A stretch of DNA of 64,000 nucleotides from a virus (lineage: Duplodnaviria; Heunggongvirae; Uroviricota; Caudoviricetes). Position numbers and translations under genes: made by a program. Numbering within the stretch: the stretch's first letter is position 1; each line of letters opens with the position of its first letter. The notes under the pieces were generated by a model. That model worked only from the letters and a program-made list of their open reading frames with translations. It searched no databases and was not told the DNA's origin. The stretch lies in IMG/VR virus record IMGVR_UViG_2937414065_000001. One strand, given 5' to 3'. Of this stretch, positions 530 through 57,563 are shown piece after piece.

Positions 530-542
530 AAACAAGTTGTTT
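530..542 (+). promoter_or_regulatory. AACAA-N-TTGTT palindromic motif (motif A), 36 nt upstream of parA start
   Basis: Sequence gAAAACAAgTTGTTTc; one of 7 near-identical copies in the window. Confidence 0.5.
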
Positions 543-577
543 CATACGACAATAATTCACGCAAAGGGAACTCACCA

Positions 578-1243
578 ATGACCAAGATCATTGTGGTTGG
601 CGGCACAAAAGGCGGCCCAGGCAAATCTACCGTTGCCCAGCAAATTGCGGTATGCCTCAAAGTTAAAAAGAAAAAGAAGGTTCACGTCACCGATATCGAT
701 ATCCAGCGCACCACGACGAGCTGGTGTGAAGACCGTCGCCAGAATGATGATCTTGAGCTGATTCCCTTCGCATATGTTCAGGATGACATCGTCAAACATC
801 TTAAATCGCTTCAGGGGCGCACCGATTATGTAGTGGTAGATGCTGGTGGCTTTGACTCCGAAATTCAGCGTCTGGCGATGCTTATGGCTGATGTGATTAT
901 CATCCCGCTGCGTCCTAAACGTCGTGATTTGAAATCTCTGCGTGATATCGACCCGATCATCGACAACGTTCGCAATGTGAACGAGACAGTGAAGATCCGC
1001 GCGGTAGTGAATCAGTGTCCGTCACTGCCTTCCCAGGCATCACGTATTCTGGCGGCGAAAGAAATTGTCGAGACATTCGGCATCGAGGCTGCGCCGGTTA
1101 ACCTGTACAACCGTAACGTTTATGACGATGCGGAAGAGGCAGGTCGTTCTATCTTTGAAATGACTGGCGCTGAACGCGATAAGAAGGCAGAAGCCGAGTT
1201 CGAAGAGTTTGTAGATTACATCATGAGTCTGGAGGAAGAATAA
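578..1243 (+). CDS. parA: ParA/ParF-like partition ATPase (small deviant Walker-type)
   Basis: Starts MTKIIVVGGTKGGPGKSTVA with a KGGxGKS deviant Walker A box. About 220 aa, followed by a small ribbon-helix-helix-like gene. Confidence 0.8.
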   Translation: MTKIIVVGGTKGGPGKSTVAQQIAVCLKVKKKKKVHVTDIDIQRTTTSWCEDRRQNDDLELIPFAYVQDDIVKHLKSLQGRTDYVVVDAGGFDSEIQRLAMLMADVIIIPLRPKRRDLKSLRDIDPIIDNVRNVNETVKIRAVVNQCPSLPSQASRILAAKEIVETFGIEAAPVNLYNRNVYDDAEEAGRSIFEMTGAERDKKAEAEFEEFVDYIMSLEEE

Positions 1244-1602
1244 TGTCCATGAGAATGGGAGACCTTGCAAAGCGCAAAGAGCCGGAAGAGCAGCCAAAAA
1301 GCAGCACCCCAATGCGCCAGCCAGTCAGACCGCAGGGGCGTCCGACTCGTGGGAAAGAGAAGATTAAGAGCCGCACAATGTCGCTGGAAGACGAGTACTT
1401 CGATCTGCTGGAGATGATGAAGTTCATCCCTCGTTTCGAGAAGTTCACCCGTTCTGACGTGATTCGTGCAGCCATTTTCCATCTGGCAGAGAAGTCGCCG
1501 CAGGAAATCGAGGACATCGTGAAGCTGAACGAGGCGATCACCGCTGCCGACGTCACGATGCGCACCGATGAAATCAAGCGTGAGCTGATGAAGAAAGGTT
1601 AA
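1243..1602 (+). CDS. ParG-like partition / centromere-binding protein (ribbon-helix-helix-like C-terminus)
   Basis: 119 aa with a basic N-terminal tail and a C-terminus (TRSDVIRAAIFHLAEK) that resembles an RHH fold. Its start overlaps the parA stop (ATGA). Confidence 0.5.
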   Translation: MSMRMGDLAKRKEPEEQPKSSTPMRQPVRPQGRPTRGKEKIKSRTMSLEDEYFDLLEMMKFIPRFEKFTRSDVIRAAIFHLAEKSPQEIEDIVKLNEAITAADVTMRTDEIKRELMKKG

Positions 1603-1641
1603 ATAAGAGGCGTCGAAAGACGCCTTTAACTCAAAAGGACT

Positions 1642-2406
1642 TTGTTTGTGCTGTACAAATACGTAGGGCATGAAGACCCAAACGAATTAATCAAAATTCT
1701 TAAATTCTTCATCGAAGATGGAACCATCCGAGCCACCCGGCCACACGACTTCAATGACCCTGCCGAGTTCAAAGCCAAATTTAGTTTTGACGCCACGATC
1801 CCGGAGAAGCGTTTCCGATATCATGAGATGTGGCCTGGCAAAAGCGACGAGGACGGTGAGAACTGGTTAAGAGGGCGAACCAAAAACGCCGAAGAGTTTG
1901 ACGCCTATATGCTGCGCGGAAATCTGCTTTTGAATACCGGTGTGATATGCCTCACCAGAACTGACACTAATTACCTGATGTGGTCGCATTACGCCAGCTC
2001 CCACTCTGGATTTTGCATAGGGTTTGATGACGCTATTGTGGAAGCGCTGGATGACCGACACACAGCGTTAAACGGTGATGTGGAGTACGTGGAATCCCCG
2101 CCTGAAGTGAACTTCTATACCGCTGATGTGTACGACATTGTCAGAGCCATCTTTCTGCACAAGGGTGAGAGCTGGAAGTACGAAGAAGAGTTCCGGATTA
2201 TCTCTGAGCTGCCAGGGATTAAGAAGTTCGACACCTCGCTCATCAAAGAGATTTCTATCGGATGCAAACCCTATCCAGAGCTGGAAAGTTTTGCTCGTGA
2301 ACTGCTGGACAGCAATCTGGCCGTGTACAAAATGCTTTGCCCTACTGACTCGTACCAACTGAAACGTGTGGCGCTGGACAAGAACCTTACTTTTCAAGGT
2401 TACTAG
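1642..2406 (+). CDS. hypothetical protein (254 aa)
   Basis: Long ORF with typical codon usage and no domain I recognise. Start codon is uncertain; a GTG is likely. Confidence 0.5.
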   Translation: MFVLYKYVGHEDPNELIKILKFFIEDGTIRATRPHDFNDPAEFKAKFSFDATIPEKRFRYHEMWPGKSDEDGENWLRGRTKNAEEFDAYMLRGNLLLNTGVICLTRTDTNYLMWSHYASSHSGFCIGFDDAIVEALDDRHTALNGDVEYVESPPEVNFYTADVYDIVRAIFLHKGESWKYEEEFRIISELPGIKKFDTSLIKEISIGCKPYPELESFARELLDSNLAVYKMLCPTDSYQLKRVALDKNLTFQGY

Positions 2407-2425
2407 TTCTGGCAGCTTCAATTAA

Positions 2426-2492
2426 GAACCTGCTTCTGTATGTATAAATACTAAGTTACTTATTATTATTTATACGGAAGCAGGTCTTTTTC
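2426..2492 (+). repeat. conserved intergenic hairpin module, copy A: 13-bp stem, ~32-nt AT-rich loop containing TATAAATA, T-run
   Basis: GAACCTGCTTCTGTA...TATAAATA...TACGGAAGCAGGTC-TTTTTC. The same module recurs at 52698-52766. Confidence 0.6.
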
Positions 2493-2570
2493 TATGCCAA
2501 CTTCCCAGACACATTCCCTTCCGTTTCCACTTCCAAAAAACATCTCCAGTCGCTATGATTCGCCCATTAT

Positions 2571-2592
2571 GATAAGTAAGTAACTACCTATC
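2571..2592 (+). promoter_or_regulatory. 22-bp palindromic motif B (GATAAGTAAGTAACTACCTATC), 11 nt before the ATG at 2603
   Basis: One of at least 17 copies of the consensus GATAGGTAAGTA-n-TTACCTATC in intergenic positions. Confidence 0.55.
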
Positions 2593-2602
2593 GGCGGAGC
2601 AC

Positions 2603-3328
2603 ATGAGCCAGATCTTCTTTAACACTATTAACAACGACCAGTACGACTTCATGACCGAGTGGGACACCACAGTCATGGACAAGTGGGTGGCCGAGAATAT
2701 TGGGCTGTCACGCTGCAAGGATGAGGCTGAGTTGTTCGAGACAAAGTGGTTTGATTACCGCGACATGCACCCGCTTATGGCCACATGCCTCTTCACTGAG
2801 ACGTACAAGCGCCAGTACTCATACATCATGCTGTCGCATGGCCGTGAACACTATGAGACGGCCCAATTTACTACCGGTTTGAAACGTGTGCCGTATCAGG
2901 AGCTGTCGACGGCCAACAAAACGTCTCTCTGGAAAGCACGCCAGTTTGCCGACCAGTACTGCTGCTCTTATGACTACTTCATTTCTACCGTTCTTTCCGC
3001 AGCTGCACGCCGTCTGTGGGACAAATTGCCGCGCCCCCAGCATCTCTGGCAGCCCGAGCTGATCGAGATATTCGAAGAGAAGTTAGCCAAACGCGCTGTA
3101 ACCCGTCTGGATGACTCTCTGGTGAGTTTTAAGCATCTGGGAGACATGCAACACGACCCGATTCAAGAACGCTATTTTGAGTGGGTTCTGGAGCGTCTGC
3201 GTGGCATTACCCGAGACAAACGCGTCCGCATCATCTTCTCCGCTGTCTGGTTGATGGAAATCGTGCCTGAGCGTGTGATTTACGCGCACTTCCCGGAAGA
3301 ACTGGAAGAAGCACGGCGATTCTGTTGA
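2603..3328 (+). CDS. hypothetical protein (241 aa)
   Basis: ORF sits directly downstream of motif B. No family I recognise. Confidence 0.5.
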   Translation: MSQIFFNTINNDQYDFMTEWDTTVMDKWVAENIGLSRCKDEAELFETKWFDYRDMHPLMATCLFTETYKRQYSYIMLSHGREHYETAQFTTGLKRVPYQELSTANKTSLWKARQFADQYCCSYDYFISTVLSAAARRLWDKLPRPQHLWQPELIEIFEEKLAKRAVTRLDDSLVSFKHLGDMQHDPIQERYFEWVLERLRGITRDKRVRIIFSAVWLMEIVPERVIYAHFPEELEEARRFC

Positions 3329-3354
3329 TCCCCTATCTGGCTTTTTTAGTATTA

Positions 3355-3370
3355 GAAAACAAATTGTTTA
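3355..3370 (+). promoter_or_regulatory. motif A (GAAAACAAATTGTTTA), 20 nt upstream of the helicase start
   Basis: Palindrome AACAA-A-TTGTT. Confidence 0.5.
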
Positions 3371-3388
3371 AGCACCAAAGGAAAGCAC

Positions 3389-4729
3389 ATGACCGAACTT
3401 TGCCACACAGGACGAGGGTTGTCTGAAGAGTTCGACGACGACTTCCAGAATCGACTCGCAGCCTACTTCTGTCGCGACCATGAATTTCTGACTCGCGCGG
3501 GTGATCTGGTTGCGCCAAACCAGTTCTCCAATGCGGCCAACGCCATTCTGGTGAACATGGTGTCGGGCTACTACAGAATGTATAAGAGCGCACCATCATC
3601 GTCGGCCATCCTCGACATGCTCAAACGCGCCAAACGCGATAAGACGATCCGCGAAGAGCTTTTCCCCGACGTTGTTGAGGCGTTTAAGAGGATTCTCGCT
3701 GAGAAGCTGTCAGATACGGCGTACATGGTCGACCAGGTCGCGACGTTTGCCAAAAGCGTAGCGTTCGACGACGCGCTGATTAAAGCGGCTGAGATGAAAG
3801 AGAAGGGCGATTTCCAGGGCGCGATGGCAATCATGGCTAAAGTCCAGCAAATCGGCTCTAACGAAGCGACCGGCATTTACGATTACTTCTCTGAATCAGC
3901 AGAGCGTTACAAGGCGCGTGAGTACGAAGCGTCCGACGATTACGTGCCAAACAGCATCACAACGGGTCTACCGCTGCTCGACAAGCTGCTTTACCAGAAA
4001 GGCTGGGCTAAGCGTGAGATGGTGCTGTTCATGGGCTTCGCGAAGTCTGGTAAGTCGACGGCGATGGGTGAGTTCTCCATCAACGCTACGCTTGCCGGTT
4101 ACAACGTCCTGTATCTGTCGCTGGAAGTTCACACCTCCATTCTGTCAGATCGCTTTGACGCCCGTTTGTCTGAGACCGAAATGTCCAAGCTGGTGGAGCG
4201 CCGCGACGACGTCCATCGCAAACTGGCAGAACTGGGCGCGACGAAAGGCGTGGGGAGCTTGTGGATTGTTGAGCGACCGTCCGGAAGCATGTCGCCTGCA
4301 GATCTGGATCGCATGTTGGGCAGCATGAAAGCCAATGGCATGATCCCCGACATGGTCGTGGTCGACTACGCCGACCTGATGCGTGCCAGCTACGACCTCC
4401 GCGACGACCGCGCCAACATTCGCAGCATCTACACTGACCTGCGTGCGCTGTACGACAAACACAACGTTGCCGGTATCACAGCATCGCAGACTAACAGGGA
4501 AGGTGGCGCTTCTGAGGTGGCCACAATGATGCACGCAGCGGACAACATCGAGAAGGTGCGTATCGCTGACCTCGTTATCACGATCAACAAAACGGAAGAG
4601 GAAGAAGCGAAAGGCGAAGCGCGTCTGTACTTCGCTGGTTCACGTAACCAGAAAGGTGGCGTAAGCATCCGCGTTAAGCAGAACCTCGAACAAATGCGAT
4701 TCATCGAACGAATTATGGACGTCCTCTAA
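3389..4729 (+). CDS. DnaB-like replicative DNA helicase (RecA-fold)
   Basis: Walker A GFAKSGKST; Walker B-like VVVDYADLM; SQTNREG motif. RBS AAAGGAAAG lies upstream. Confidence 0.8.
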   Translation: MTELCHTGRGLSEEFDDDFQNRLAAYFCRDHEFLTRAGDLVAPNQFSNAANAILVNMVSGYYRMYKSAPSSSAILDMLKRAKRDKTIREELFPDVVEAFKRILAEKLSDTAYMVDQVATFAKSVAFDDALIKAAEMKEKGDFQGAMAIMAKVQQIGSNEATGIYDYFSESAERYKAREYEASDDYVPNSITTGLPLLDKLLYQKGWAKREMVLFMGFAKSGKSTAMGEFSINATLAGYNVLYLSLEVHTSILSDRFDARLSETEMSKLVERRDDVHRKLAELGATKGVGSLWIVERPSGSMSPADLDRMLGSMKANGMIPDMVVVDYADLMRASYDLRDDRANIRSIYTDLRALYDKHNVAGITASQTNREGGASEVATMMHAADNIEKVRIADLVITINKTEEEEAKGEARLYFAGSRNQKGGVSIRVKQNLEQMRFIERIMDVL

Positions 4730-4818
4730 AAAAAGAAGGCGTGGGGAAACGCTCTCCACGCCGGTCTCCATAAGAGAACAAATTTTCTCTTTTGCCAAAG
4801 CCACAAAAGAAAAAACAC

Positions 4819-6003
4819 ATGAGCCTTTATGGTATTCAAATACCGAGGCTTATCAAGATATTACCTGCAAAAAGTAGGGTTAAGAACGTGAGCGACTTGA
4901 AAGAATTACTGACCGAGCTGGATTTTGAGCAATGGCTCGATATGGAAGGAATCATCTACCGTCGTGGTGGCGTCAGTACTCGTGGACGTGAGGTGAATAT
5001 CAAGGAGTGCCCGGTATGTGGCAGCTCAAACTGGAAGGTTTATTTCAATCTGACCAATGGCGTCGGCAAATGCTTTGCTGGTGATCATCCCGAAGAGATT
5101 CAGTTCAACAAGCTGGTCTTCCTCAAGCACTACAGCGGCAAATCCCGTCGCGATTTTGAAGAGTACGTCCAGAACGCGCTGATCTCACAAGGATGGGCGC
5201 CGAAGAAGGAAGAGATCGTGCTGGCCAGCAAGGTTGAACTCGAAGGGCCAGTAGCTCTCCCGCGACATTATGAACTCCCCATTGACGGTCGTCTTCCTGA
5301 TTATCTGGTGGAGCGCCAGATTTCACCTGAGCTGGCCAAATACTTTGATCTGCGTTACTGCGTTGAAGGCAAGCACGCATACGTCGACCCGTACACAGAC
5401 CAGGTCAAAGGACAAGTGTTCGACATGCGCATCCTGATACCAGTTTACGATCTGGATGGCGTGATGAAGACCTTCCAGGGGCGTGACATTACCGGGGCTG
5501 CAGAACGCCGTTATCTCTTCCCCATGCAGCTGCCGGCGTCGGGTAAGTTTCTCTACAACGGCCACAACGCAGTCGGAAAACAAACGGTCGTTGTGTGTGA
5601 AGGGGCATTTGACGTAATGGGCGTGAAGCGTGCCATCTTCGACGAAGAGACGCTGCGGGATTACGTGGAGCCAATTGGCACGTTCGGGATGCACTTGTCC
5701 GGAAATATGAATGAGGACGCTGAAGATCAGTTGGGCGCGTTCCTGACGCTCAAGGCGCGTGGATTACGCAACATCATCATGATGTGGGATAGCGAGAAAC
5801 AAGCGATCCGCAACACTATGTCGGCGGCCAAACGTCTCACCAGCATCGGACTGAATGTCAAAGTGGCCTGTCTGGGCGAAGAAGGTCTCGACCCCGGCGA
5901 CGCGACGCCAGAGCAGATCCTAAAAGCCTATTATCGTGCCAAGCCGTACTCCAGACAGTTGGAGCTACAAAGCAAGGTTCTAGGGATAAAGGCATTGTTA
6001 TAA
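4819..6003 (+). CDS. DnaG/T7-like DNA primase (zinc finger + TOPRIM)
   Basis: Zinc finger CPVCGSSNWKVYFN...C..H. TOPRIM motif VVVCEGAFDVMG. A TTG at 4792 is an alternative start; ATG 4819 fits the usual spacing from motif A at 4776-4789. Confidence 0.75.
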   Translation: MSLYGIQIPRLIKILPAKSRVKNVSDLKELLTELDFEQWLDMEGIIYRRGGVSTRGREVNIKECPVCGSSNWKVYFNLTNGVGKCFAGDHPEEIQFNKLVFLKHYSGKSRRDFEEYVQNALISQGWAPKKEEIVLASKVELEGPVALPRHYELPIDGRLPDYLVERQISPELAKYFDLRYCVEGKHAYVDPYTDQVKGQVFDMRILIPVYDLDGVMKTFQGRDITGAAERRYLFPMQLPASGKFLYNGHNAVGKQTVVVCEGAFDVMGVKRAIFDEETLRDYVEPIGTFGMHLSGNMNEDAEDQLGAFLTLKARGLRNIIMMWDSEKQAIRNTMSAAKRLTSIGLNVKVACLGEEGLDPGDATPEQILKAYYRAKPYSRQLELQSKVLGIKALL

Positions 6004-9310: not shown

Positions 9311-9486
9311 TGCTCGGCTGGATGATTGTATTTTTGGTCGTCGGCATTGTTATTGGCAGTCTGATTACGTCCAGCTGCATCAACGATTACGTAAAAGCCG
9401 GTGTCATGCAGAGACGTGGCCGCATTTACCGCATTGTAGATATCACGTACACACTGAAGGAGATTAAGGATGATCATGTTAAGTAA
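9310..9486 (+). CDS. small membrane protein (58 aa)
   Basis: Hydrophobic MLGWMIVFLVVGIVIGSLI; start overlaps the ligase stop (TGATG). Confidence 0.3.
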   Translation: MLGWMIVFLVVGIVIGSLITSSCINDYVKAGVMQRRGRIYRIVDITYTLKEIKDDHVK

Positions 9487-9682
9487 ACGGGAGAAAGAAA
9501 CTCTGCGTGAAATCAGCCAGTGGAAACAGTTCTATGCCAACTGGAAGCCAAAGACCCGCGCCAAACTTGAACGCATGAATCTTGTCGCTAACGTTTCGCC
9601 AAAGGGATGTGTGGAGAACTATCAACTCACTGAAAAAGGACACTCACTGTTGCAGCAATTGACTGAGGCGGGGGCGTTCTGA
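9470..9682 (+). CDS. hypothetical protein (70 aa)
   Basis: Short ORF in the listed six-frame track; part of a run of abutting small genes that share a strand. Confidence 0.35.
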   Translation: MIMLSKREKETLREISQWKQFYANWKPKTRAKLERMNLVANVSPKGCVENYQLTEKGHSLLQQLTEAGAF

Positions 9683-9834: not shown

Positions 9835-10136
9835 GCAATTTGACCTCTTTCGACTGGTGGCTGGCAACCTACCTTGTGGCGGCTGGCTTCGGATATGCCT
9901 TTTACATTGGTCAGTTAATCGTAAAGCTACTGCTGATCAGATTTGCCAGCCATAAACGCATAGACGACGGTCTGTGGCGCCTGGGTTCTCTGCTGGAGAC
10001 TCACTACGGCGAACTCAAGGAGAACGAAACTATCACTATCCAAGCGAAGCGTTTTACGGCCATCATCACGAGAACGCCGGAACAGAAGGTGAGTTTGATC
10101 AAAAAGATAGCAACTGAACGAGTAACAGAAAAATAA
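9831..10136 (+). CDS. membrane protein (101 aa)
   Basis: ORF with an N-terminal transmembrane helix; start overlaps the upstream stop (ATGA). Confidence 0.4.
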   Translation: MSNLTSFDWWLATYLVAAGFGYAFYIGQLIVKLLLIRFASHKRIDDGLWRLGSLLETHYGELKENETITIQAKRFTAIITRTPEQKVSLIKKIATERVTEK

Positions 10137-10885
10137 GTATTTACTTACTTATCTATTATGTATAAGATTCATTTGTTTTCGTTGAGACGCGACTGTTTGA
10201 ACGTTAAATATAACTGCAAACGAAGATACGTACCTGGCAGTAGCCTAAGAAGCCAAACACCAGCGAGGTCAGTTTCCAGCCTCGTCACCGAAATGGGACA
10301 CACTGAGCGAGTGTGATTGCAGAACGCAGGATAGGGCATGTTGCACCACCCATGCCCTATTCGATGAAGTAACAGGATGGGCGGTTGGTTTCCTCATTCC
10401 ATTCCATCATCCCGGTTTCAGCCAGCTGACCGTCCATCCTGTTACGTCATTTCCATTACTTATGTCGTTTAATCTTGGGTTAAAAGCGGCGACGTAACCC
10501 GGCTGGCTTGGTTAGCCAGCGCACAACGTTGAGGTCACTGTTTTTTCTTTTAATCATACAGGTGATTCCACAGAGCTGTAGTGACTGATCAATATGTTGG
10601 GTCGAACATAAATCGGTTCAGTGGCCTCAACGTTGTGAAAGCAGGATTCTTTAACCCTCTGGTGAAATCATTGTTGCCTATGTAGCCCCTGGTTTCACAA
10701 CATGGATGATTCCATACATCCAATAAGATCGAAGAGTCTGGCGGCCATCAACCGCCGAGAAGGATTCCAGATCTTCGCTCTATGTGAGCGAGCCACAAGC
10801 CTCGTCTAGCACTAACGTAAAGTGCAAGTTGCGGGAAAGTTCTTGGTTGCCTGGTTGTCCATGAACAAGTACCGCCGCGAAAAAT

Positions 10886-10960
10886 GATGGTGTAGCTCAG
10901 TGGTAGAGCGGTTGACTGTTAATCAACTGGTCGGTGGTTCGAGTCCACCCACCATCGCCA
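10886..10960 (+). tRNA. tRNA-Asn (anticodon GTT), CCA encoded
   Basis: Acceptor stem GATGGTG/CACCATC. D-arm GCTCAGTGGTAGAGC. Anticodon loop CTGTTAA. T-arm GGTGGTTCGAGTCCACC. 3' end GCCA. Confidence 0.8.
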
Positions 10961-11112
10961 ACATAGCGCTGAACGGTTTGGAGTTCGCCACCACCGTCCG
11001 AACGGAAAGACTCCGCAAATGTCGCCAGACCGTTCAGCGCTGTGATAGACACGGCAGACGTTCTTAACCATTGCTTCTTAGCATTGTACCAACACTTTTT
11101 AGCGCAAAAATC

Positions 11113-11135
11113 AAAGGGGCTTCGGCCCCTTTTTT
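11113..11135 (+). terminator. rho-independent terminator
   Basis: AAAGGGGCTTCGGCCCCTTTTTT. Confidence 0.65.
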
Positions 11136-11262
11136 GCTGGGTTGACTCCAGAATATTTCCACGTATGGTTTTACCACCTTTGGGCCTTCATTTAGCAACG
11201 GCAGCATTAGACTGCCTGCATGTGGGTGATAGGATGTGGCAGTAAAACATGGAGATAAGCCA

Positions 11263-11817
11263 ATGAAAAAGCGCAACCTCAATATTCTTGCATCTCTGGT
11301 GATCGCGCTCGCTCTGACGGGATGTAACGAGTCTGAAGTAGATAAAATCACGCTGATAGGCCAAGACAAAAAGGCTCTTGAGAGCCAGTACAAAACCCTC
11401 TTTGAAAAACGAACACCAAACATCGAAGCCTTCGCTCTGTTCGATAAAACTGCGGCTGAAGGCAAGGAACCGCATACCACTGGTGGATTAATTGACGGCA
11501 AAGTTGAGTCGAGCATGACTACTAACGTCGGCAAATATACCTTCATGCAGCTCGACGAAATGCTTACTAAAGAATACGGTAAGCCGGTTGCCACCAAAGA
11601 CCAGGTATTTGATGAGACAGCCTTGAATGGACTGGAATGCGCCAAGACAATGTCATGTGCAGCGGGAAAGTATTATGAGGTATTCCGCGGCAAAGAGCGC
11701 CTGATCATGATGATCAACGGTGCCGGTTTCATGAATAAAGATGAGGGCGTAACGTTACTTACCTTTACCGACAAACACTTAAAAACGGCGCGTCTGGAAG
11801 AAGACAAACGCCACTAA
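11263..11817 (+). CDS. lipoprotein
   Basis: MKKRNLNILASLVIALALTGC lipobox; RBS GGAGATAAG. Confidence 0.6.
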   Translation: MKKRNLNILASLVIALALTGCNESEVDKITLIGQDKKALESQYKTLFEKRTPNIEAFALFDKTAAEGKEPHTTGGLIDGKVESSMTTNVGKYTFMQLDEMLTKEYGKPVATKDQVFDETALNGLECAKTMSCAAGKYYEVFRGKERLIMMINGAGFMNKDEGVTLLTFTDKHLKTARLEEDKRH

Positions 11818-11854
11818 CAAATAACTCTAAGACTATTTATACAGCGAGGCAGTT

Positions 11855-12643
11855 TTGGGAAATCGAGACAATTTCAGTGCCAATGTAAAAAGAACGCTGG
11901 CAAACAGAGTTGGTCATAGATGCTCATTTTTTGGTTGCAACCAAGTTACTACTGGGCCTGATATCTCCAACCCTATGGGTGCAATTAATAGTGGCATTGC
12001 GGCGCACATCACGGCAGCTGCGGAGGGTGGCCCTCGTTATGACAAGTCACTCACACCGCAGCAACGAAGTGATATATCAAATGGTATTTGGATGTGCGAG
12101 TATCACGCAGGGTTAATTGATTCGCATGACCCAGCTTATTCTGCCCCTCTTCTTCATTCATGGAAGGTTCAGGCAGAGGCTCGCCAAGCTGCCGCACAAG
12201 AACTTTCACAGCAAGGTGTCGCCACAACCTATAGTGATAGAGATATCCGCGTTCTAAAAGAACTTACCGATAAGTTCAACTATCGCTACCTCCAGATGCT
12301 AGAGCAAGAGCCATTCGGAGCCAAAGTACGTGATGTGATTACGACACCACTTTATGAATTTTTTGTTCAGTCTGATGACCCATTTTGTTCATTCAACAGC
12401 CGAGAGCTTGAATCGATGCGAGTTGAATTAATAGGTAAGGTCAAAAATTTCTGGCGTCATTTCGGCCAACATTCTGCTGGTTGTGTAGGGTACTATGACT
12501 ACATTGATATTTCGGCAATAAGAATGAGAAATCCTGACTCGGTTAATCGTTTTATTGAGCTAATTTATCAGACGCAGGAACTCGCCCAAGACATTTGCCG
12601 TACAGCACGGAAGTTGTTGGAAATACGAGCAAGACTGGAATAA
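11855..12643 (+). CDS. HNH-family (HNH_2-like) nuclease domain protein with an unknown ~150-aa C-terminal domain
   Basis: HRCSFFGC...AAHITAAAEGG...NGIWMCEYHAGLID matches the CxxC...AHI...GG...N..lC..H..D HNH pattern. Start is a TTG with GAGG 5 nt upstream. Confidence 0.5.
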   Translation: MGNRDNFSANVKRTLANRVGHRCSFFGCNQVTTGPDISNPMGAINSGIAAHITAAAEGGPRYDKSLTPQQRSDISNGIWMCEYHAGLIDSHDPAYSAPLLHSWKVQAEARQAAAQELSQQGVATTYSDRDIRVLKELTDKFNYRYLQMLEQEPFGAKVRDVITTPLYEFFVQSDDPFCSFNSRELESMRVELIGKVKNFWRHFGQHSAGCVGYYDYIDISAIRMRNPDSVNRFIELIYQTQELAQDICRTARKLLEIRARLE

Positions 12644-12698
12644 AAAGGCTCATTCAAAGATTCTCACTCACGGTATTGAGAGTCTTTTGAAACACAAA

Positions 12699-12718
12699 AT
12701 AGGTAATGACTTACCTAT
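12699..12718 (+). promoter_or_regulatory. motif B palindrome (ATAGGTAATGACTTACCTAT) upstream of phoH
   Basis: Near-perfect inverted repeat, followed by TACTTATCGG. Confidence 0.5.
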
Positions 12719-12765
12719 TACTTATCGGTATAGTTCTTTCAGTTACTCACTTGAAAGGACTCAAT

Positions 12766-13539
12766 ATGGGAAACAAACGTAAACAGGCGCGTCGCGCAGC
12801 TCGTCAGGCACTGAAGTCAAAACCACGCATCCACGGCTACGAAATTGACACAATCATCGTTGACGAGCTGGCTGCCGCCCCTGCTCTGCCACCAAAACCT
12901 AAACGCGACAACTCCCCCATCGAAGCGCGTAACGAGGCCCAGGCCCACTATCTTATCTCCCTCGATACCAAACCTCTGACGTTCGCCGCTGGTGAAGCCG
13001 GTTGCGGTAAGACCTACCTGGCTGCTGCCGTCGCAGCGCAGCGTCTGCTGGATAAGGAGGTCGGGAAGATCATCGTGACGCGTCCGGTATTGCAAGCAGA
13101 AGAAGATCTGGGCTTCCTTCCGGGCGACATGAGCGAGAAGTTCGCTCCGTTCTTCCGGCCCGTCTATGACGTGCTACAGAAGCGTTTGGGTGGCTCGTTC
13201 CTTGAATATTGCTTAAAACCAGAGGTGGCCAAAGTAGAGATTGCCCCCTTCGCTTACATGCGTGGGCGCACGTTCGAGAATGCTGTAGTCATTCTGGATG
13301 AGGCGCAAAACGTTACAGCGTCACAAATGAAAATGTTCCTGACCCGTATGGGCGAGAACGTAACCGTCATTGTGAACGGAGATGTGACGCAATGCGACCT
13401 GCCAGGCAATGTTAAGTCTGGTCTGGAAGATGCACTGGAACGTTTTAAACCTTCCTCCCATGTTGGCCTTATTGAGTTTGCGACCGAAGACTGCGTGCGT
13501 TCTGAGCTATGCAAAATCGCACTGGAAGCCTATCAGTAA
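12766..13539 (+). CDS. phoH: PhoH-like ATPase
   Basis: GEAGCGKTYLA Walker A and VILDEAQN Walker B; typical phage PhoH size. Confidence 0.8.
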   Translation: MGNKRKQARRAARQALKSKPRIHGYEIDTIIVDELAAAPALPPKPKRDNSPIEARNEAQAHYLISLDTKPLTFAAGEAGCGKTYLAAAVAAQRLLDKEVGKIIVTRPVLQAEEDLGFLPGDMSEKFAPFFRPVYDVLQKRLGGSFLEYCLKPEVAKVEIAPFAYMRGRTFENAVVILDEAQNVTASQMKMFLTRMGENVTVIVNGDVTQCDLPGNVKSGLEDALERFKPSSHVGLIEFATEDCVRSELCKIALEAYQ

Positions 13540-13549
13540 GGGAAAGCCA

Positions 13550-13753
13550 ATGACCAAAGAGTACCTGCCACACCAGAAACGTGTCATGGATGAACACGAA
13601 GAACTGTGTGGCCGCATCAAAGAACTGGAGGCGTACATTGCCGGCGACGAGTTCGCTCGCCTGCTGTATGTCGACCGCATCATCCTCATTAAGCAGCTGG
13701 ACACGATGAAGGCGTATGACTTGATTCTTCGTGCCCGGATCGCTCGTTTTTAA
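13550..13753 (+). CDS. hypothetical protein (67 aa)
   Basis: ATG follows RBS AAGGGAAAG; lies between phoH and the next gene. Confidence 0.45.
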   Translation: MTKEYLPHQKRVMDEHEELCGRIKELEAYIAGDEFARLLYVDRIILIKQLDTMKAYDLILRARIARF

Positions 13754-13768
13754 CGTAAGGAAACCAAA

Positions 13769-14134
13769 ATGACCGATATGGATATCGAAAAAGAGATTGT
13801 GGTCAAAGGCAAAACGGCCGCGCGTGTTACCCCGGAACGCATTGAAGCTGTTATCTCAGGCGAATTTTACTTTACCGGCGCGGACGGATATCGCAGCTCA
13901 CCGTTGTGGCTGAAGCAGGAAGAGCCTGAACCGGCCCCGCAATCACTCGAACTGCTGACATTCTGCGTTCTTGTGCTGGAGAACGGCTACACCGTAACCG
14001 GCGAGTCTGCGTGCGCCAGCCCGGAGAACTTTGATCCGGAGATCGGACGTAAAATTGCACGCCAGAACGCGATTGCCAAAATCTGGCCCCTGGAAGGCTA
14101 TCTTCTCAAGCAGCAGCTGCACGAGGTGAAGTGA
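13769..14134 (+). CDS. phage Gp49/Sf6-gp66-like hypothetical protein
   Basis: 121 aa; the FTGADGY...ENGYTVTGES segment looks like that phage family, but I am unsure of the assignment. Confidence 0.4.
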   Translation: MTDMDIEKEIVVKGKTAARVTPERIEAVISGEFYFTGADGYRSSPLWLKQEEPEPAPQSLELLTFCVLVLENGYTVTGESACASPENFDPEIGRKIARQNAIAKIWPLEGYLLKQQLHEVK

Positions 14135-14379: not shown

Positions 14380-14384
14380 TACAA

Positions 14385-14413: not shown

Positions 14414-14475
14414 GTCGCAGTTTCAGGGAACGCGTACACTTAGTTACGAGCCAGCAAAAAGCAGGCAGATAAATC

Positions 14476-15576: not shown

Positions 15577-16686
15577 ATGATGAAAAACACCTTTGATAAA
15601 GCACGCGCAGCAGAAAACACCTCTCGGGAAGCCATCGAGTACCTCGAACGCGCTTCCGGTTTGTCGGCAGTGTCGACCGCCAAATTCGACGGAGACATGT
15701 CGTTTTCTTCCGCCTTCATGTTATTCACTCGCTTATCTTTACTGATAACGAGACGTCGACCTGAAATAGCCGTTCATTGTGTTTTGATACATGTAATGCC
15801 GCATATCTCTGAAGTAAAGGTAAGTGATATAAGTAGGGTCTTGGTCAACCAACTGGTGAACCCACTGATACTGGAAGGCAAGATCGTCCAGGGCAGACGC
15901 GTATTCTCCCTAATGAAACAGTTCCTGAGCTGGTGCGCTTTTCAGGGGCTGATTGATACATCGCCGTTGAATGATATGTCGCTCAATAAAGTTGCTGGTG
16001 GCGCGAAGCCAGTACCGCGCGAACGTAAGCTGACCGACGCCGAGGTCTGGGTATTCTGGAACGTCTGGGATTACTTCAATGTGTGTGAAGGCACAAAGTG
16101 GGCGGCCAGGCTCTGTCTTGTTGCTGCCAGACGACCCGATGAAGTGCTCCGGGCCAGAAAGGATGAGTTCAACCTTCAACGTGATGTATGGAATCAAGGT
16201 ACGCGAAACAAATCGGCCAGACAGCACGCGCTGCCGTTAAGCCCATTGATGCGTCAATGCGTGGAAGAGTTGTTCGAGTACGGGAAAGGCAGCCAGTGGC
16301 TCGTTCCTTCGAATAAGAAGAAGGGCGTAGATACGCCAATGTCTAAGGTGGCCATTGCCCAGGCACTGAGAAGGATACTGGAACGACCTGAGTTGATGGA
16401 GGTTGAGTCATTCACCCCACGCGATCTGAGACGTACAGCTCGTAGCTATTTCCCCGCTCTGGGGATTAGTCAGGAGGTGGCTCGTAAGATTATGAACCAC
16501 AGTCTTGAAGGGATAGATCGCGTCTATGACCGCCACGATTATATGGATGAGATGCGAGACGCCTTGAATAACTTCTCAACGTACATCGCATCCATCGTTA
16601 ATCAAACAGACTTAGACGAGATAGACCACAAATTCAAGGGAGATCGTCTAGCCACCGAGCTTATTCGTGTAAATTTCTCACAGTGA
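15577..16686 (+). CDS. tyrosine recombinase / phage integrase family
   Basis: C-terminal catalytic motifs: R in TPRDLRRTA, H..R in NHSLEGIDRVYDRH, and a Tyr at VYDRHDY. Confidence 0.8.
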   Translation: MMKNTFDKARAAENTSREAIEYLERASGLSAVSTAKFDGDMSFSSAFMLFTRLSLLITRRRPEIAVHCVLIHVMPHISEVKVSDISRVLVNQLVNPLILEGKIVQGRRVFSLMKQFLSWCAFQGLIDTSPLNDMSLNKVAGGAKPVPRERKLTDAEVWVFWNVWDYFNVCEGTKWAARLCLVAARRPDEVLRARKDEFNLQRDVWNQGTRNKSARQHALPLSPLMRQCVEELFEYGKGSQWLVPSNKKKGVDTPMSKVAIAQALRRILERPELMEVESFTPRDLRRTARSYFPALGISQEVARKIMNHSLEGIDRVYDRHDYMDEMRDALNNFSTYIASIVNQTDLDEIDHKFKGDRLATELIRVNFSQ

Positions 16687-17064
16687 CTTGATGGCCTCAA
16701 CCACCTTTTCTGACGCACCTTGTTGACCGTCAAAACGGTTACGGAACGCTTCTAGAACGAGTTTTTCATCAGCGGAGAGAGGTGCAGTGCCCTCTTCGCG
16801 AAAAAACTCAAGCAGCTCAGGATGACGTTCTTCCAGAACCATCAGCATCAGTCGAACCGGATCTGCATCCAGCGCTTCGGCTAATGCTCGAACCTTATCT
16901 ACTGGAAGTGGGATTTTGCCGCTTTTGATGAGAGAGAGATTGTTGGCGTTCTTGTACCCAACCTCTTTGGCAATGGTAGCCTGACTTTTAGGCGAGATTG
17001 TGATTAACGAGTCAATGTAAGCTGCGTAGCGACCTTGTTTGATCTCTGTTTCGTTGGTAGCCAT
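16678..17064 (-). CDS. helix-turn-helix (XRE/Cro-like) transcriptional regulator
   Basis: N-terminal ...SQATIAKEVGYKNANNLSLIKSG helix-turn-helix. Convergent with the recombinase gene and overlaps its stop. Confidence 0.6.
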   Translation of the reverse strand: MATNETEIKQGRYAAYIDSLITISPKSQATIAKEVGYKNANNLSLIKSGKIPLPVDKVRALAEALDADPVRLMLMVLEERHPELLEFFREEGTAPLSADEKLVLEAFRNRFDGQQGASEKVVEAIKSL

Positions 17065-44909: not shown

Positions 44910-44925
44910 GATAACAATTTGTTTA
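44910..44925 (+). promoter_or_regulatory. motif A (GATAACAATTTGTTTA), 32 nt upstream of nrdB
   Basis: Palindrome AACAA-T-TTGTT. Confidence 0.5.
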
Positions 44926-54959: not shown

Positions 54960-55074
54960 AATGGAGCTTCCTCAATACCCTAATAATATGGATTGAATAT
55001 TGTATTTTACTTATGACGGCTGGACTTTGTAATTTGTTTTTTATTGAGTTTTCATCTTCGTAAAACTTTCGATA

Positions 55075-55110
55075 AAAACGCAGGCTAATAAGATATTATA
55101 GCCTGCGTTG
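55075..55110. terminator. hairpin terminator downstream of the minus-strand ATPase gene
   Basis: AAAACGCAGGCTAATAAGATATTATAGCCTGCGTT. Confidence 0.5.
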
Positions 55111-55114
55111 TGAT

Positions 55115-57184
55115 TTACTTGCACTTGTTATTTAAATAGCTTCTAATATATAGATCAAGCAACTTGCTTAGCTGTTTGTTAACTTCATCATGTTTTTGAG
55201 GGCTACGCATTTTAGAAAGATGTCGCTCAAGAAATTTTGAAGGCAACTTTATAACCAATTTGTTATGGTTGTCATAAAGTTCTTTTACCCAGATTAGCTC
55301 TTTATGTTTTTCTAAGTTTTCAGAGTGATCCCTATTTATAATGAAAGCTAGCCTACCATAATCTTTAAATAAATATGAATTTACTTGTCTATATTCATCA
55401 GCACCTAACGTTTTGTAGTTTTTGATTTCGAATACAACTTGTCGAGATTGGTAATCAGTCAATATCCTTTTCCAGACAGGTGTGTCGGCAAGGTTTGTTG
55501 CAATAATGTCTCGCTGCTGTAGACCATTTTTGTTTGAATGGAGTTCAATATTGGTCAAATTCGTCGCAAACAATATTTTAATAGCTTTCAAAGCCCATGC
55601 TTCAAAATCAACAGCCCCTTCCTTACCTTCTGGGATATTATTTAATTCTTGAAGAAGAGCACCGATCCGTTGTTTTCGTTGTACTTCTGATACGGAGCTA
55701 ACTTCGATATCGTATTCATCGTGGATATCGTCAGCTGTTTCAGGAGTAATGTCTGACTCATGAACACTTAATGCAAGCCAATAGCAAGGATGTAGCAGAA
55801 GCTTGGAGCCTGGTGTAAACTCTTTTTCTGGTTCTTTTCCATCATGACAAAACACATATGATGAGGACTGCTGATTGTATAATCCAAAAAAACCAACACT
55901 ATACAAACGTTGGATCACCTGAACAGGACCTTCAAACAAAAGGATGTCCTGTAATTTCATTTTGTCATTAACTTCTTTTATATCAAATGCTTGGCTTATT
56001 ATTTCAGAGGCTTCCGCGATGGTAAAATCTGGTCTTTTATTGCCAAAAAGCGATGTAAATATATCTAGTGCAGGGAATACATTTTCATATTCTTTTAGTA
56101 AGTCGTTAAGCCTGTTTTGAGATATTGTGTTTGCAGTGGCTTTTATGTCATCAATTATTATTTTTGTGCGATCGTGAGTTGCGGCCCTCAGGAAAGCATC
56201 ATTTAATAATACCAAGATATCTCTCGGTCTATATAATGTAAGCTTAAGTGCTTCTTTAAAACCCGTATTTGACTGTAATTCATTAGCGGTGTACGCATTC
56301 CAAACTCGCGTGTTATTTTCTATGGTTGAGTTAAATGCAACTCTCATTCTGTTACAAACCAAATTGAAGAGATTGTATTCGTCCCAATGTAATCTTAATA
56401 CCTGTCCTTCAATGTTTCTGGTAAAATCAGGGTCCATTTTAGATATGGCTCTATGGATATTGTCTCTAACGAAAGCAAATGCGATAACTTTTTCTTGCAA
56501 ATTTTGTTTTATATCAATAACAGACTGAATGAAACCGTCAACGATAGCAACCCCTAAATCATCTGGAGTGTATCCTTCATCTAGCCTGTCAGCAAAAATA
56601 ACGAATTGATGGTTTGATTTTGAAATAGCTTCGAATAAAACCTCTTCTAGTAAATCTAATTCAAAATTATCTGATAAATCTGATATTCTTGTAGCCGGTT
56701 TAACATCTTTTCCAGTATCAAGGATAGATATTAATTTTTTCCTTATTTTACCACTTATGTTTTGTCTTTTAGCTCCCCAAGATAATAAGTGTTTCTCTAC
56801 ACTTTTATAGTCTAGATCATTTTTCATCCTATAGTGGCTTGCTATTTCGGAAAGTAATTCCATATAAATCGCATAGCGCCAAGCTAGTTTGCTTCCGGCT
56901 TTAATATGCAAATAATTTTCACCGAAAAGTGAGACAACATCTCTTAGACCAATAATTTGTTCTTCAATAGGGCTAATGGTCATCACATGCGTTTTAGGTT
57001 TTGCGTGCCAATGTTTTGACAGCATATGCACTAATGCACTTTTGCCAGTGCCTCTGCGACCTACAACTATGCATCGATCATACGACTCTAAAAGAGCTTT
57101 ATAATCAGTTGTTTGCCAGAATGAGGCTTCAAGCATTTTGGCATCGTGTTCTGCTCTGATATCCCCTAGAACGTTACCTTTCAT
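55115..57184 (-). CDS. orphan 689-aa P-loop NTPase with possible C-terminal PD-(D/E)xK-like motif; candidate defence protein
   Basis: N-terminal Walker A VVGRRGTGKSALV and a Walker B-like VIFADRLDEG. C-terminal D...FEIK segment. Markedly AT-rich compared with its neighbours. Sits next to a type I RM operon on the same strand. Confidence 0.6.
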   Translation of the reverse strand: MKGNVLGDIRAEHDAKMLEASFWQTTDYKALLESYDRCIVVGRRGTGKSALVHMLSKHWHAKPKTHVMTISPIEEQIIGLRDVVSLFGENYLHIKAGSKLAWRYAIYMELLSEIASHYRMKNDLDYKSVEKHLLSWGAKRQNISGKIRKKLISILDTGKDVKPATRISDLSDNFELDLLEEVLFEAISKSNHQFVIFADRLDEGYTPDDLGVAIVDGFIQSVIDIKQNLQEKVIAFAFVRDNIHRAISKMDPDFTRNIEGQVLRLHWDEYNLFNLVCNRMRVAFNSTIENNTRVWNAYTANELQSNTGFKEALKLTLYRPRDILVLLNDAFLRAATHDRTKIIIDDIKATANTISQNRLNDLLKEYENVFPALDIFTSLFGNKRPDFTIAEASEIISQAFDIKEVNDKMKLQDILLFEGPVQVIQRLYSVGFFGLYNQQSSSYVFCHDGKEPEKEFTPGSKLLLHPCYWLALSVHESDITPETADDIHDEYDIEVSSVSEVQRKQRIGALLQELNNIPEGKEGAVDFEAWALKAIKILFATNLTNIELHSNKNGLQQRDIIATNLADTPVWKRILTDYQSRQVVFEIKNYKTLGADEYRQVNSYLFKDYGRLAFIINRDHSENLEKHKELIWVKELYDNHNKLVIKLPSKFLERHLSKMRSPQKHDEVNKQLSKLLDLYIRSYLNNKCK

Positions 57185-57546
57185 GTATTACCCTTTTAGC
57201 GTTAAAAGGAGGGGGCAATGGCCTTTGTAGACTTGAGTTCCATTTGCCTGATGCCATCCTCATCAAACTTCTTCCGTTTTCCCGAAGAGGGGGGAGATTA
57301 ATGTATCATTTTTAACGGGTTACACAAGAATATGACTTCTTAATCTAGGAGCTGAGCGTTCTTCAGGAAAAAAATAAGCATGAATGACAGCGGTTGTAGC
57401 CTTAGATTTTAAGGTGGTTACGTTCTTAATTTATTGAATTACCAATTAACTTTGAACACTATCAATTTAGCGTCTCTAAGCGTCTCTACAACCCCTGTGA
57501 ATACTGCTTTTACGCCTTTTCAACTTTGGGAAAATAACACCAATAA

Positions 57547-57563
57547 GAAAACAATTTGTTTAA
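57547..57563 (+). promoter_or_regulatory. motif A (GAAAACAATTTGTTTAA), 11 nt upstream of a small plus-strand gene inside the defence island
   Basis: Same palindrome as found upstream of parA, the helicase gene, cobT and nrdB. Confidence 0.5.

Follow-up and report, generated by a model that had tools for sequence, protein, structure and literature searches.

The question raised by this locus is what a short palindrome, here called motif B, does in front of several genes of a phage-plasmid, and what reads it. The window (the whole stretch of 64,000 nucleotides that was analysed) represents an SSU5/pHCM2-type phage-plasmid. On the grounds of sequence comparison, we consider motif B to be, with a probability of roughly 0.55, a double-stranded-DNA operator at which a symmetric, element-encoded repressor would block RNA polymerase. 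The operator family has not been described previously. In the literature we found no binding, footprint or transcription-start data for any SSU5-like element, and we infer where transcription starts, that the genes are repressed, and which protein is the binder.

Motif B sites in the window

The consensus of motif B is GAAAACAA-n-TTGTTTA, the full dyad being GAAAACAA-n-TTGTTTTC, and it forms a 16-base palindrome. The pattern GAAAACAAnTTGTTTA has six sites in the window, at 528, 3355, 17616, 32484, 44910 and 57547, all on the plus strand and with PWM scores of 23-26. With up to three mismatches allowed, the 16-mer has 16 matches in the window against 2.78 expected, and the core AACAAnTTGTT, with at most one mismatch, has 10 against 2.83; these counts were reached in none of 100 shuffles. 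The sequence-only reading had listed seven copies, and six of them are confirmed. The copy at 4776 (GAGAACAAATTTTCTC at 4774..4789, plus strand, before the primase gene) was rejected as degenerate (PWM score 12.7, one half-site matching) and unconserved, as relatives read differently at position 4774. One more PWM match, at 55252 (minus strand, score 18.2), falls within coding sequence and is probably due to chance. The distance to the ATG is not the fixed 20-35 nt that had been described: the actual gap from motif end to ATG varies from 11 to 64 nt.

The first site (528-543, GAAAACAAGTTGTTTC) ends 34 nt before the ATG (578) of parA (578..1243, plus strand), the first gene behind it, which encodes a small ParA/ParF-type partition ATPase (PHROG 164, ParA-like, E = 3e-52, in agreement with the annotation of relatives). 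TTTACA (486) and, after a 17-nt spacer, TAGGCT (509) are located upstream, and TATAAG (523) abuts the site; either TAGGCT or TATAAG may be the true -10 hexamer. The site is kept in SSU5, Cyrano and Klebsiella (Kp) pMB7868_2. The site of the DnaB-like helicase gene (3355-3370, GAAAACAAATTGTTTA) is a perfect match to the consensus, 18 nt from the ATG (3389). TTGATC (3325) and, after a 16-nt spacer, TAGTAT (3347), which ends 2 nt before the site, may constitute the helicase promoter; in the helicase upstream region of four genomes, the invariant part consists only of motif B and the block of Shine-Dalgarno sequence (SD) and start. Eighteen nucleotides also separate the site 17616-17631 (GAAAACAAATTGTTTT) from the ATG (17650) of the cobT-like gene; an extended -10-like TGATAAATT is found here at 17597, and orthologous sites are present in SSU5 (42727), Cyrano (43104, flipped), pCP102 (84245) and pMT1 (66416).

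The site of the NinX/DUF2591 gene (32484-32499, GAAAACAAATTGGTTA; 64 nt to the ATG at 32564) had been called weaker, but with a single mismatch it is not weak. It is preceded by a terminator hairpin (32438) and then by a TATTAT hexamer (32469), and its orthologues are located at 56846 in SSU5, 58593 in Cyrano, 4289 in Kp, 99566 in pCP102 and 50323 in pMT1. Between nrdA and nrdB, the site 44910-44925 (GATAACAATTTGTTTA; 31 nt to the nrdB ATG at 44957), of the GATAAC variant, lies downstream of a terminator-like hairpin at 44857; it is kept in SSU5 (70217) and Cyrano (70324) and is absent from that position in Kp pMB7868_2. The last site (57547-57562, GAAAACAATTTGTTTA), again a perfect match, belongs to the promoter of a DUF4942 gene, 11 nt from the ATG (57574). 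A small gene inside a defence island had been assumed behind it; the site is real, whereas at 57574-57789 only the 5' part of the DUF4942 gene (SSU5_095) is left, cut off by an inserted type I R-M island. Positions 57486-57732 of the window are 95.5% identical to SSU5 82405-82651, and the orthologous promoters in Kp (86852/86903) and pCP102 (17697/17747) carry an operator pair.

Placement in relatives, promoter architecture and expression

In every Enterobacteriaceae SSU5/pHCM2-type phage-plasmid, motif B recurs close to promoters at about 17-20 positions. The complete relatives have 17-20 copies each, nearly all of them intergenic: 18 of 20 in SSU5, whose genome is 9.5% non-coding (P = 7e-17), 15 of 18 in Cyrano and 15 of 20 in Kp (P about 1e-12). 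The majority of the sites are located 3-70 nt 5' of a start codon. The genome-wide scan of complete relatives is in line with the proposed non-random placement, mostly intergenic and near start codons, and motif B is indeed dyad-symmetric, promoter-proximal and common to several operons. Orthologous sites are retained at genome identities of about 80% and about 65%, while the flanks diverge. As to the range of genes, the small-terminase/late operon of the complete relatives has two tandem copies in front, and further copies precede the DUF4942 gene, an Ant-like gene and about ten small ORFs of unknown function. The supposed replication and partition regulon is therefore right in that several operons share the motif, but too narrow, since the terminase operon and many small genes are also included. 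Dispersed motif B is missing from the Morganellaceae (Moellerella) and Acinetobacter relatives, being confined to Enterobacteriaceae-host elements.

What is constant in motif B sites is that a -10-like hexamer lies on one side and the SD on the other: in the extended alignment, GATAAT, often TGnGATAAT, ends 11 nt 5' of motif B, and the SD follows immediately 3' of it. Other sites are mirrored, about 38 bp 5' of the start, and pairs are often 50-51 bp apart (SSU5 88318/88368 and 93660/93711, Cyrano 93113/93163, and the Kp and pCP102 pairs given above). Owing to the poor -35 elements, a simple sigma-70 scan found no canonical promoter at motif B sites, and we therefore infer the positions of the motif relative to +1. 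Among 48 distinct core sequences there are 27 one-sided changes, one G.U pair and no compensated pairs; in other words, the half-sites decay independently, without compensatory changes. The leaders have neither a stable nor a shared RNA fold, and no Rfam family was found for motif B.

According to the RNA-seq data on the Cyrano lysogen (S1 table, normalized reads, background 9.8; PMC9928086), the genes behind motif B are silent (terS 7.1, helicase 21, cobT 7.8, CYRAN_58 5.7, nrdB 12.9, CYRAN_85 7.0, CYRAN_87 7.1, CYRAN_101 7.5, CYRAN_105 12.8, CYRAN_106 12.2, CYRAN_108 5.7), except for the parA operon, where parA has 50 and the ParG-like gene following it 89, about 9-fold over background (PMC9928086). 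Such silence is equally expected of an activator-dependent promoter.

Taken together, the placement, the independent half-sites and the lysogen silence are in keeping with an operator on DNA that a symmetric repressor would occupy. In the majority of cases the operator, standing directly after the -10-like hexamer, would cover approximately +1 to +20, like lacO1; at the other sites it would precede the -10 by about 17 nt, with its centre near -38, and so cover the -35 region. Several promoters carry both positions, separated by 50-51 bp, or about five helical turns, which might allow cooperative binding or a small loop. The helicase, cobT-cobS-dnaE, nrdB, the terminase operon and many small genes should then be silenced in plasmid-prophage life, while the parA operon would be merely damped by the same repressor (autoregulation).

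The putative binder and alternative readings

An element-encoded dimeric regulator is the best reading, as had been suggested from the sequence. Our best guess at its identity, a tentative one, is the leading candidate, a ParG-like small basic protein of 119 aa (1243..1602, plus strand) whose gene follows parA directly, its start codon overlapping the parA stop codon; like KorB or omega, it would serve both in partition and as a global repressor. Its family is restricted to SSU5-like elements, and in 736 of 797 plasmid records the identity of the protein is 90% or more. The most perfect 17-bp motif B dyads are those at parA promoters, and in the relatives without dispersed motif B the best intergenic match is located upstream of parA (Moellerella 15447, Acinetobacter 37433), both with scores in the range that random maxima reach across the genome. 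The AF2 model has a disordered N-terminal tail followed by helices, at low confidence (pLDDT 64), and the fold search with it gave no informative match; no similarity to ParG, to a solved RHH protein or to any solved structure was detectable. Of the earlier proposal of an RHH ParG-like regulator, the part that stands is its plausibility, given the palindromes of the parA promoter; the RHH fold of the protein is putative. Conservation of the protein in deep comparisons is average (31st-53rd percentile), and its putative DNA-reading strand is conserved also in Moellerella, which lacks dispersed sites.

The XRE-like HTH protein (16678..17064, minus strand; Pfam HTH_31 at 18.2 bits, below cut-off; PHROG 8, E = 1e-11), an orthologue of the Cyrano "putative repressor" CYRAN_45, had also been named as a possible regulator; we rate it below the ParG-like protein and find it quite improbable that motif B is its operator, with the protein acting as the lysogeny repressor of the element. 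Its orthologue is expressed about 10-fold above background in the Cyrano lysogen and is found in about 850 enterobacterial SSU5-like plasmids, the helix-turn-helix segment is nearly invariant between the lineages sharing motif B, and SSU5, isolated as a lytic phage, has kept the operators without the int-XRE module and so resembles a repressor-deletion mutant. However, the XRE promoter region contains no copy of motif B; its conserved element is a core of motif A (GGTAAGTGCTTAC at 17096, conserved in Cyrano). Motif A, TAAGTA-N6-TACTTA, is a palindrome more numerous than motif B, and the two form interleaved operator families in SSU5-type elements. The XRE recognition helix is conserved wherever motif A is conserved: Moellerella pW18-2-b, though devoid of B sites, retains motif A together with the key helix residues (NN-S-IKSGK), and in the Acinetobacter relative helix and motif A have changed together. 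This pattern links the XRE protein with motif A, which, judging from these covariations, it probably binds rather than motif B. It is clearly unlikely, too, that the operator is bound by an SSU5_130/CYRAN_123-like protein or by an Enterobacteriaceae-confined host transcription factor. The former, a conserved winged-helix-like protein of 88 aa whose gene lies immediately upstream of that for the terminase, ranks with the best conserved small proteins (70th-90th percentile in every comparison), and the tandem B sites before terS directly follow its gene; yet this gene is silent in the lysogen (7.8 versus the background of 9.8), and Moellerella, despite its lack of B sites, retains the protein at 61% identity. 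The observed limitation of motif B to Enterobacteriaceae-host elements is what one would expect of a host factor, but we know of no enterobacterial factor with this consensus, which counts against such a reading.

Motif B might also be read on RNA, in the 5' leader by the SD, with a FljA-like protein repressing the translation of about 15 mRNAs, which we regard as rather unlikely. FljA represses translation of fliC mRNA, and the FljA-like gene (PF03614), located outside the window, is present in all four motif B-positive lineages and in neither of the two motif B-negative ones, thus tracking the motif better than the ParG-like gene. Its product matches Pfam Flag1_repress (E = 3e-81), is 34% identical to genuine FljA and has, in the AF2 model (pLDDT 82), two Hfq/Sm-like domains (Foldseek probability 1.0, TM 0.7-0.84 versus Hfq). 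The FljA-sensitive fliC leader, CCCAATAACATCAAGTTGTAATTGATAAGGA, has CCAATAA and CAAGTTGT in common with class I modules, neither being present in the FljA-insensitive fljB leader, and class I motif B sites adjoin the SD. Nevertheless, the fliC leader agrees with motif B at only 9 of 15 positions, while perfect dyad symmetry and independent, never compensated half-site changes have no rationale on RNA; the possible hairpin consists of 4-5 A-U-rich pairs and folds no better than shuffles, and many sites are located 5' of a -10-like hexamer or by terminators with no gene behind. Besides, the FljA-like protein shows poor conservation (36% between lineages with an identical motif, 7th percentile), and its gene is barely expressed in the Cyrano lysogen. 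Very improbable is a reading of motif B as an activator site, or as part of a specialised promoter, that serves a temporal class of genes and binds no repressor. Poor -35 elements, sites centred near -38, where activators work, and the lysogen silence, compatible with an absent activator, would agree with it, and the T4-like replication genes and the sigma factor encoded by the Acinetobacter relative indicate that phage-specific transcription exists in the group. But the majority of sites have the -10-like hexamer before them and the SD behind, at only 11-34 nt from the ATG, where an activator cannot work, the parA operon carries motif B and is expressed in the lysogen, and the annotation of SSU5 and of Cyrano, including the regions matching the window, contains neither a sigma factor gene nor one for RNA polymerase.

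Comparison with known systems

The operator reading has its closest parallels in plasmids and phage-plasmids. The IncP plasmid RK2 has the KorB/KorA global regulon with the operators OB and OA. OB (13 bp, 6-1-6) is, like motif B, a short palindrome of the same geometry (cf. AAACAA-n-TTGTTT) scattered at about a dozen promoters of one replicon, and the RK2 operators likewise stand at variable promoter distances and control replication, partition and other operons. KorB is a ParB-family HTH protein, both repressor and partition protein, whereas no ParB-family HTH is implicated here and the sequences are unrelated; moreover, the element in our case is a tailed phage-plasmid and its sites are tight against the -10 and the SD. 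In the phage-plasmid P1, the C1 repressor acts at many operators round the genome, including those of ban (a DnaB-type helicase gene) and of lytic replication genes. A phage living as a plasmid, dispersed operators and a DnaB-type helicase gene as target are common to both systems, but the P1 operators are asymmetric 17-mers (ATTGCTCTAATAAATTT) rather than dyads, no C1 homologue was seen in SSU5-type elements, and the latter have two operator families.

Like omega (pSM19035) and ParG (TP228), the ParG-like protein is a small protein encoded right after a small Walker ParA and has a disordered basic N-terminal tail; an autoregulated par promoter and closely spaced half-sites (7-9 bp) would be further common features, and omega, as proposed for our regulator, has further repression targets on its plasmid, namely copy-number and stability promoters. 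In contrast, no sequence or fold match to omega or ParG is detectable, DNA binding by the ParG-like protein is putative, and the DNA targets of omega and ParG are arrays of 7-8-bp repeats instead of single dyads. The phage-plasmid N15, with a type Ia Sop system, has four inverted-repeat SopB sites scattered near phage promoters, which resemble motif B in this placement; there are four such partition-protein sites versus about 20 motif B sites, for which a role in partition would be conjectural. As for lac O1 and its auxiliary operators, the protein and the sequence are unrelated, but the mechanism would be analogous, with a dyad just past the start point and a helically phased second operator that permits cooperative binding, a design repeated here at many promoters.

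Motif B in the window and in related phage-plasmids

Bases 1-6000 of the window are 96.9% identical to Salmonella phage SSU5 and 98% identical to about 130 Enterobacter and Citrobacter plasmids, so that the window belongs to an SSU5/pHCM2-type phage-plasmid; from parA onwards it spans replication and nucleotide-metabolism genes and reaches into a type I restriction-modification (R-M) island. The motif under study, motif B, is a dyad (core AAACAA-n-TTGTTT) whose information content is symmetric over both halves. Seven copies of it had been claimed by the sequence-only reading, six of which stand as strong sites, at 528 (parA), 3355 (helicase), 17616 (cobT-like), 32484 (NinX/DUF2591), 44910 (nrdB) and 57547 (DUF4942 gene), all on the plus strand and all in between-gene gaps, whereas only one half of the copy at 4776 fits the motif, and relatives do not conserve it. 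From the end of motif B to the next ATG there are, in the same order, 34, 18, 18, 64, 31 and 11 nt. The 16-mer GAAAACAAnTTGTTTA has 16 matches in the window with up to three mismatches (2.78 expected), and the core AACAAnTTGTT has 10 with up to one mismatch (2.83 expected), counts that no shuffle reached. A terminator-like hairpin precedes motif B at three of the six sites (32484, 44910 and perhaps 3355). The site at 57547 is the promoter of the DUF4942 gene, of which the insertion of the R-M island leaves 53 codons.

Complete relatives were scanned with a weight matrix built from the six window sites, which yielded 20 strong sites in SSU5, 18 in the E. coli phage Cyrano, 20 in Klebsiella pMB7868_2 and 17 in Enterobacter pCP102. 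Of these sites, 75-90% fall between genes, against a non-coding share of about 10% in these genomes (P = 1e-12 to 7e-17), and after most of them a start codon follows within 3-70 nt; the genome-wide scan proposed in the sequence-only reading thus finds a non-random placement relative to gene starts. The targets include parA, the helicase gene, cobT, the NinX/DUF2591 operon and nrdB, as well as the DUF4942 gene, an Ant-like gene, about ten small ORFs and the small-terminase/late operon, which is preceded by two copies 25 bp apart. Given the breadth of this list, the regulon is not specific to replication and partition, as had been suggested from the window.

Orthologous sites are retained where genome identity is down to about 80% and to about 65%, with their flanks diverged, and alignments of the regions upstream of the helicase gene and parA in four genomes likewise show a conserved motif B between diverging flanks. 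An exact-motif scan of a viral contig collection returned only SSU5-like multi-copy loci and no second, non-SSU5-like family with multiple copies. Four apparent non-SSU5 carriers were discarded: the matches in L087 belong to a repeat region of a eukaryotic virus, and those in L030, L048 and L060 fall by chance inside coding sequences. Motif B is genuine and conserved, and probably constitutes an operator family, apparently undescribed so far, of a phage-plasmid group that is very common.

Promoter anatomy and candidate binders of motif B

The sites fall into two classes. In class I, as an alignment of 35 sites shows, a conserved -10-like hexamer, GATAAT and often extended TGnGATAAT, ends 11 nt upstream of motif B, and a Shine-Dalgarno (SD) sequence follows directly 3' of it. 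In class II, which is mirrored, motif B precedes a hexamer of this kind by about 17 nt and has its centre at an inferred position near -38. Both classes occur on several promoters, 50-51 bp apart, in four lineages. No canonical promoter turned up at motif B sites in a simple sigma-70 consensus scan, so that all positions relative to +1 are inferred ones.

The variation of motif B points to recognition on DNA. Among 48 distinct cores, the six symmetric position pairs are changed on one side only in 27 cases, form a G.U pair in one and show compensation in none; this is what half-sites decaying independently round a protein-bound DNA dyad leave, and not what a hairpin leaves. The leader RNA folds are weak and differ from site to site: for five of the six window sites they amount to -1.2 to -7 kcal/mol, none clearly better than shuffles, and the stretch at 32484 folds at -18.5 kcal/mol mainly through hairpins outside motif B. 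No Rfam family matches at motif B, the sole Rfam find in the window being a tRNA gene (10886-10957; 76 bits; tRNA-Asn according to the SSU5 annotation), which is located in the gap that follows a motif A site.

A translational mode of action would involve a relative of FljA, the Salmonella flagellar phase-variation repressor. The gene of this FljA-like protein lies outside the window (SSU5 96897-97343, L002 46897-47343; CYRAN_114 in Cyrano); the protein matches Pfam PF03614 ('repressor of phase-1 flagellin') with E = 3e-81, is 34% identical to true FljA, and its AF2 model (pLDDT 82) consists of two tandem Hfq/Sm-like domains, assigned to Hfq by Foldseek with a probability of 1.0. FljA-family homologues were seen on SSU5-type phage-plasmids, including ones recovered from Klebsiella. 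As a predicted tandem Hfq/Sm-like RNA binder, it would read motif B on the mRNA leader, instead of or in addition to any role of the motif as a DNA operator, and silence about 15 genes translationally, and Salmonella FljA would be a domesticated copy recognizing the related CCAAUAA...CAAGUUGU beside the fliC ribosome-binding site. The gene is present in every motif-positive lineage and in neither of the motif-negative ones, so its distribution matches that of motif B, and CCAATAA together with CAAGTTGT is common to the fliC leader and the class I modules, beside the ribosome-binding site, and missing from the fljB leader. However, the dyad symmetry without compensated changes and the existence of class II sites speak against recognition on RNA, as does the poor conservation of the FljA-like protein (36% identity between lineages with an identical motif), and we regard this explanation as improbable.

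For recognition on DNA, the leading candidate is the ParG-like protein (1243-1602, plus strand), although we would put the probability that it binds motif B at only about 0.3. Its gene starts at 1243, the start codon overlapping the stop codon of parA (578-1243), which encodes a small Walker-type ParA, and the promoter of this operon bears the most perfect motif B dyads, including perfect 17-bp ones. Both motif-poor relatives, too, have their best intergenic match to motif B upstream of parA, the expected chance of which is roughly 0.02 per genome in intergenic DNA. The ParG-like protein is found at an identity of at least 90% in 736 of 797 plasmid records, but is only averagely conserved in deep comparisons, a point against it. 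The sequence-only reading had named an RHH ParG-like protein as a possible regulator; the gene is placed as expected for a type Ib partition centromere-binding protein, but no similarity to ParG or other RHH proteins was found. There was no PDB profile match and no Pfam hit, hhalign against an approximate ParG sequence gave a probability of 0.2, and Foldseek found nothing with the AF2 monomer (pLDDT 64), in which a disordered tail (residues 1-47) is followed by helices. An RHH fold, the strand of which would form only in the dimer, was not confirmed, and this too counts against the protein. As to plasmid pMT1 of Yersinia pestis, which keeps four motif B sites and has no ParG-like gene, it is too recent a derivative to inform on this protein as the binder.

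Two other proteins were rejected as binders, the 70-aa protein at 9470-9682 (CYRAN_37), absent from the motif-positive pCP102, and the HicB-like protein at 26255-26818, absent from the motif-positive pMB7868_2 and pCP102.

Motif A, the XRE protein and the lysogenic state

The XRE protein (16678-17064, minus strand), the other regulator suggested from the window, seems to belong to a different motif. Motif A, probably the 'first' motif of that reading, is the palindrome TAAGTA-N6-TACTTA (in full about GATAAGTAA-N4-TTACTTATC) and precedes many other genes of the window, for example at 2572, 6538, 10133, 12699, 20040, 31333, 33711, 37775, 42468, 47203, 52050 and 54303. It is commoner than motif B, sits between the -10-like hexamer and the SD, and alternates with motif B along the same gene clusters (nrdA with A, nrdB with B; cobT with B, cobS with A). 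Its core GGTAAGTGCTTAC occurs at 17096, just after the XRE promoter TTTACA-16-TAATAT, and is conserved in Cyrano; motif B is lacking between 17064 and 17328, where the XRE gene has its promoter. The recognition helix NANNLSLIKSGK is kept in every motif-A lineage, including Moellerella pW18-2-b, which has no motif B, and differs in the Acinetobacter relative, in which motif A is changed to AGTAAGCGCTTACT and motif B is absent. The XRE protein thus tracks motif A and not motif B, which argues against it as the motif B binder, and motif A is probably its operator. The protein itself scores 18.2 bits with Pfam HTH_31 (cut-off 27) and matches PHROG 8 (transcriptional regulator) with E = 1e-11. Neither motif is described in the literature searched.

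Gene expression in a Cyrano lysogen is given in the S1 table of the LF82 study, with a background of 9.8 (PMC9928086). The genes behind motif B read at about background (terS 7.1, cobT 7.8, nrdB 12.9, helicase 21, small ORFs 5.7-12.8), with the exception of the parA operon (50, 89 and 55), so that the lysogen produces the ParG-like protein; the value for the XRE gene is 96 (PMC9928086). These values, as a correlation only, are compatible with repression in the lysogen and autoregulation of the par promoter. By far the highest expression of the element, 723-fold above background, is that of CYRAN_43 (PMC9928086). This gene (Cyrano 40268-40822, minus strand) encodes a 184-aa protein of unknown function and is located next to int and XRE; the window carries other cargo at this position.

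No LexA box was found at motif B. The sole one in the window, TACTGTTTATACATACAGT (15534-15552), is a good box that precedes the integrase gene by 25 nt, and Cyrano retains it with another spacer. Integrase (15577-16686, plus strand) and XRE genes are convergent with a 9-nt overlap, and SOS-induced int transcription would therefore run antisense into XRE, which could be an induction route. SSU5 (41776-42727, compared with 10136-17600 of the window) has no counterpart of the segment of about 6.5 kb that bears PhoH, the integrase and the XRE repressor; this would explain its lytic behavior, although it retains both operator families. The integrase gene is also preceded by a 13-bp inverted repeat, AATGATTCCATAC-N7-GTATGGAATCATT (15450-15482), which does not vary between the window, Cyrano and pCP102 and resembles a core site at which the tyrosine recombinase would act in recombination or resolution. 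Immediately before the cobT promoter there is a perfect 12-bp inverted repeat, CTGTACGAACAG-N9-CTGTTCGTACAG (17564-17596), which could serve as a terminator or be bound by another protein. SSU5 retains its arms around another loop; in Cyrano CTGTTCGCGCAG was seen on one arm, which may be part of a compensatory change.

Elsewhere, dnaE (Pol III alpha, 21535-25785), a single uninterrupted gene in SSU5, is split into three ORFs, the middle of which (23895-24596) encodes an HNH/NUMOD4 homing-endonuclease-like protein. The low-GC island (54972-64000, 37-47% GC) takes the place of SSU5's Ant region and cuts the DUF4942 gene short; it contains a gene for a 689-aa AAA-type protein (55115-57184, minus strand), weakly matching the defence candidate PDC-M36A, together with all three genes of a type I R-M system (hsdR 57851-60967, hsdS 61084-62331, hsdM 62328-63884).

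Significance and relation to known systems

Phage-plasmids of the SSU5/pHCM2 type are very common and bear resistance and defence genes; parts of the window have matches in between several hundred and more than a thousand PLSDB records (Klebsiella, E. coli, Enterobacter, Salmonella, Yersinia pMT1). In the literature searched we found no account of how such plasmids keep their lytic and replication genes quiet. The two interleaved palindromic operator families, one or the other of which putatively stands ahead of almost every operon, offer a testable wiring diagram with candidate proteins named for each.

The design resembles that of several known systems, with none of which motif B has a sequence or family link: omega of pSM19035, the dispersed Sop sites of N15, the C1 operator network of the phage-plasmid P1 and the KorB/KorA regulon of RK2. 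The P1 network includes control of the ban helicase. However, the C1 operator is an asymmetric 17-bp sequence unrelated to the motif B dyad, and the annotations of SSU5 and Cyrano list no C1 gene. As for RK2, its OB operator is a 6-1-6 palindrome found at a dozen promoters, and its repressor doubles as a partition protein. If the partition protein of the SSU5-type elements binds motif B, plasmid segregation would be coupled to phage silencing in them as in RK2, which would be relevant to curing or inducing these elements.
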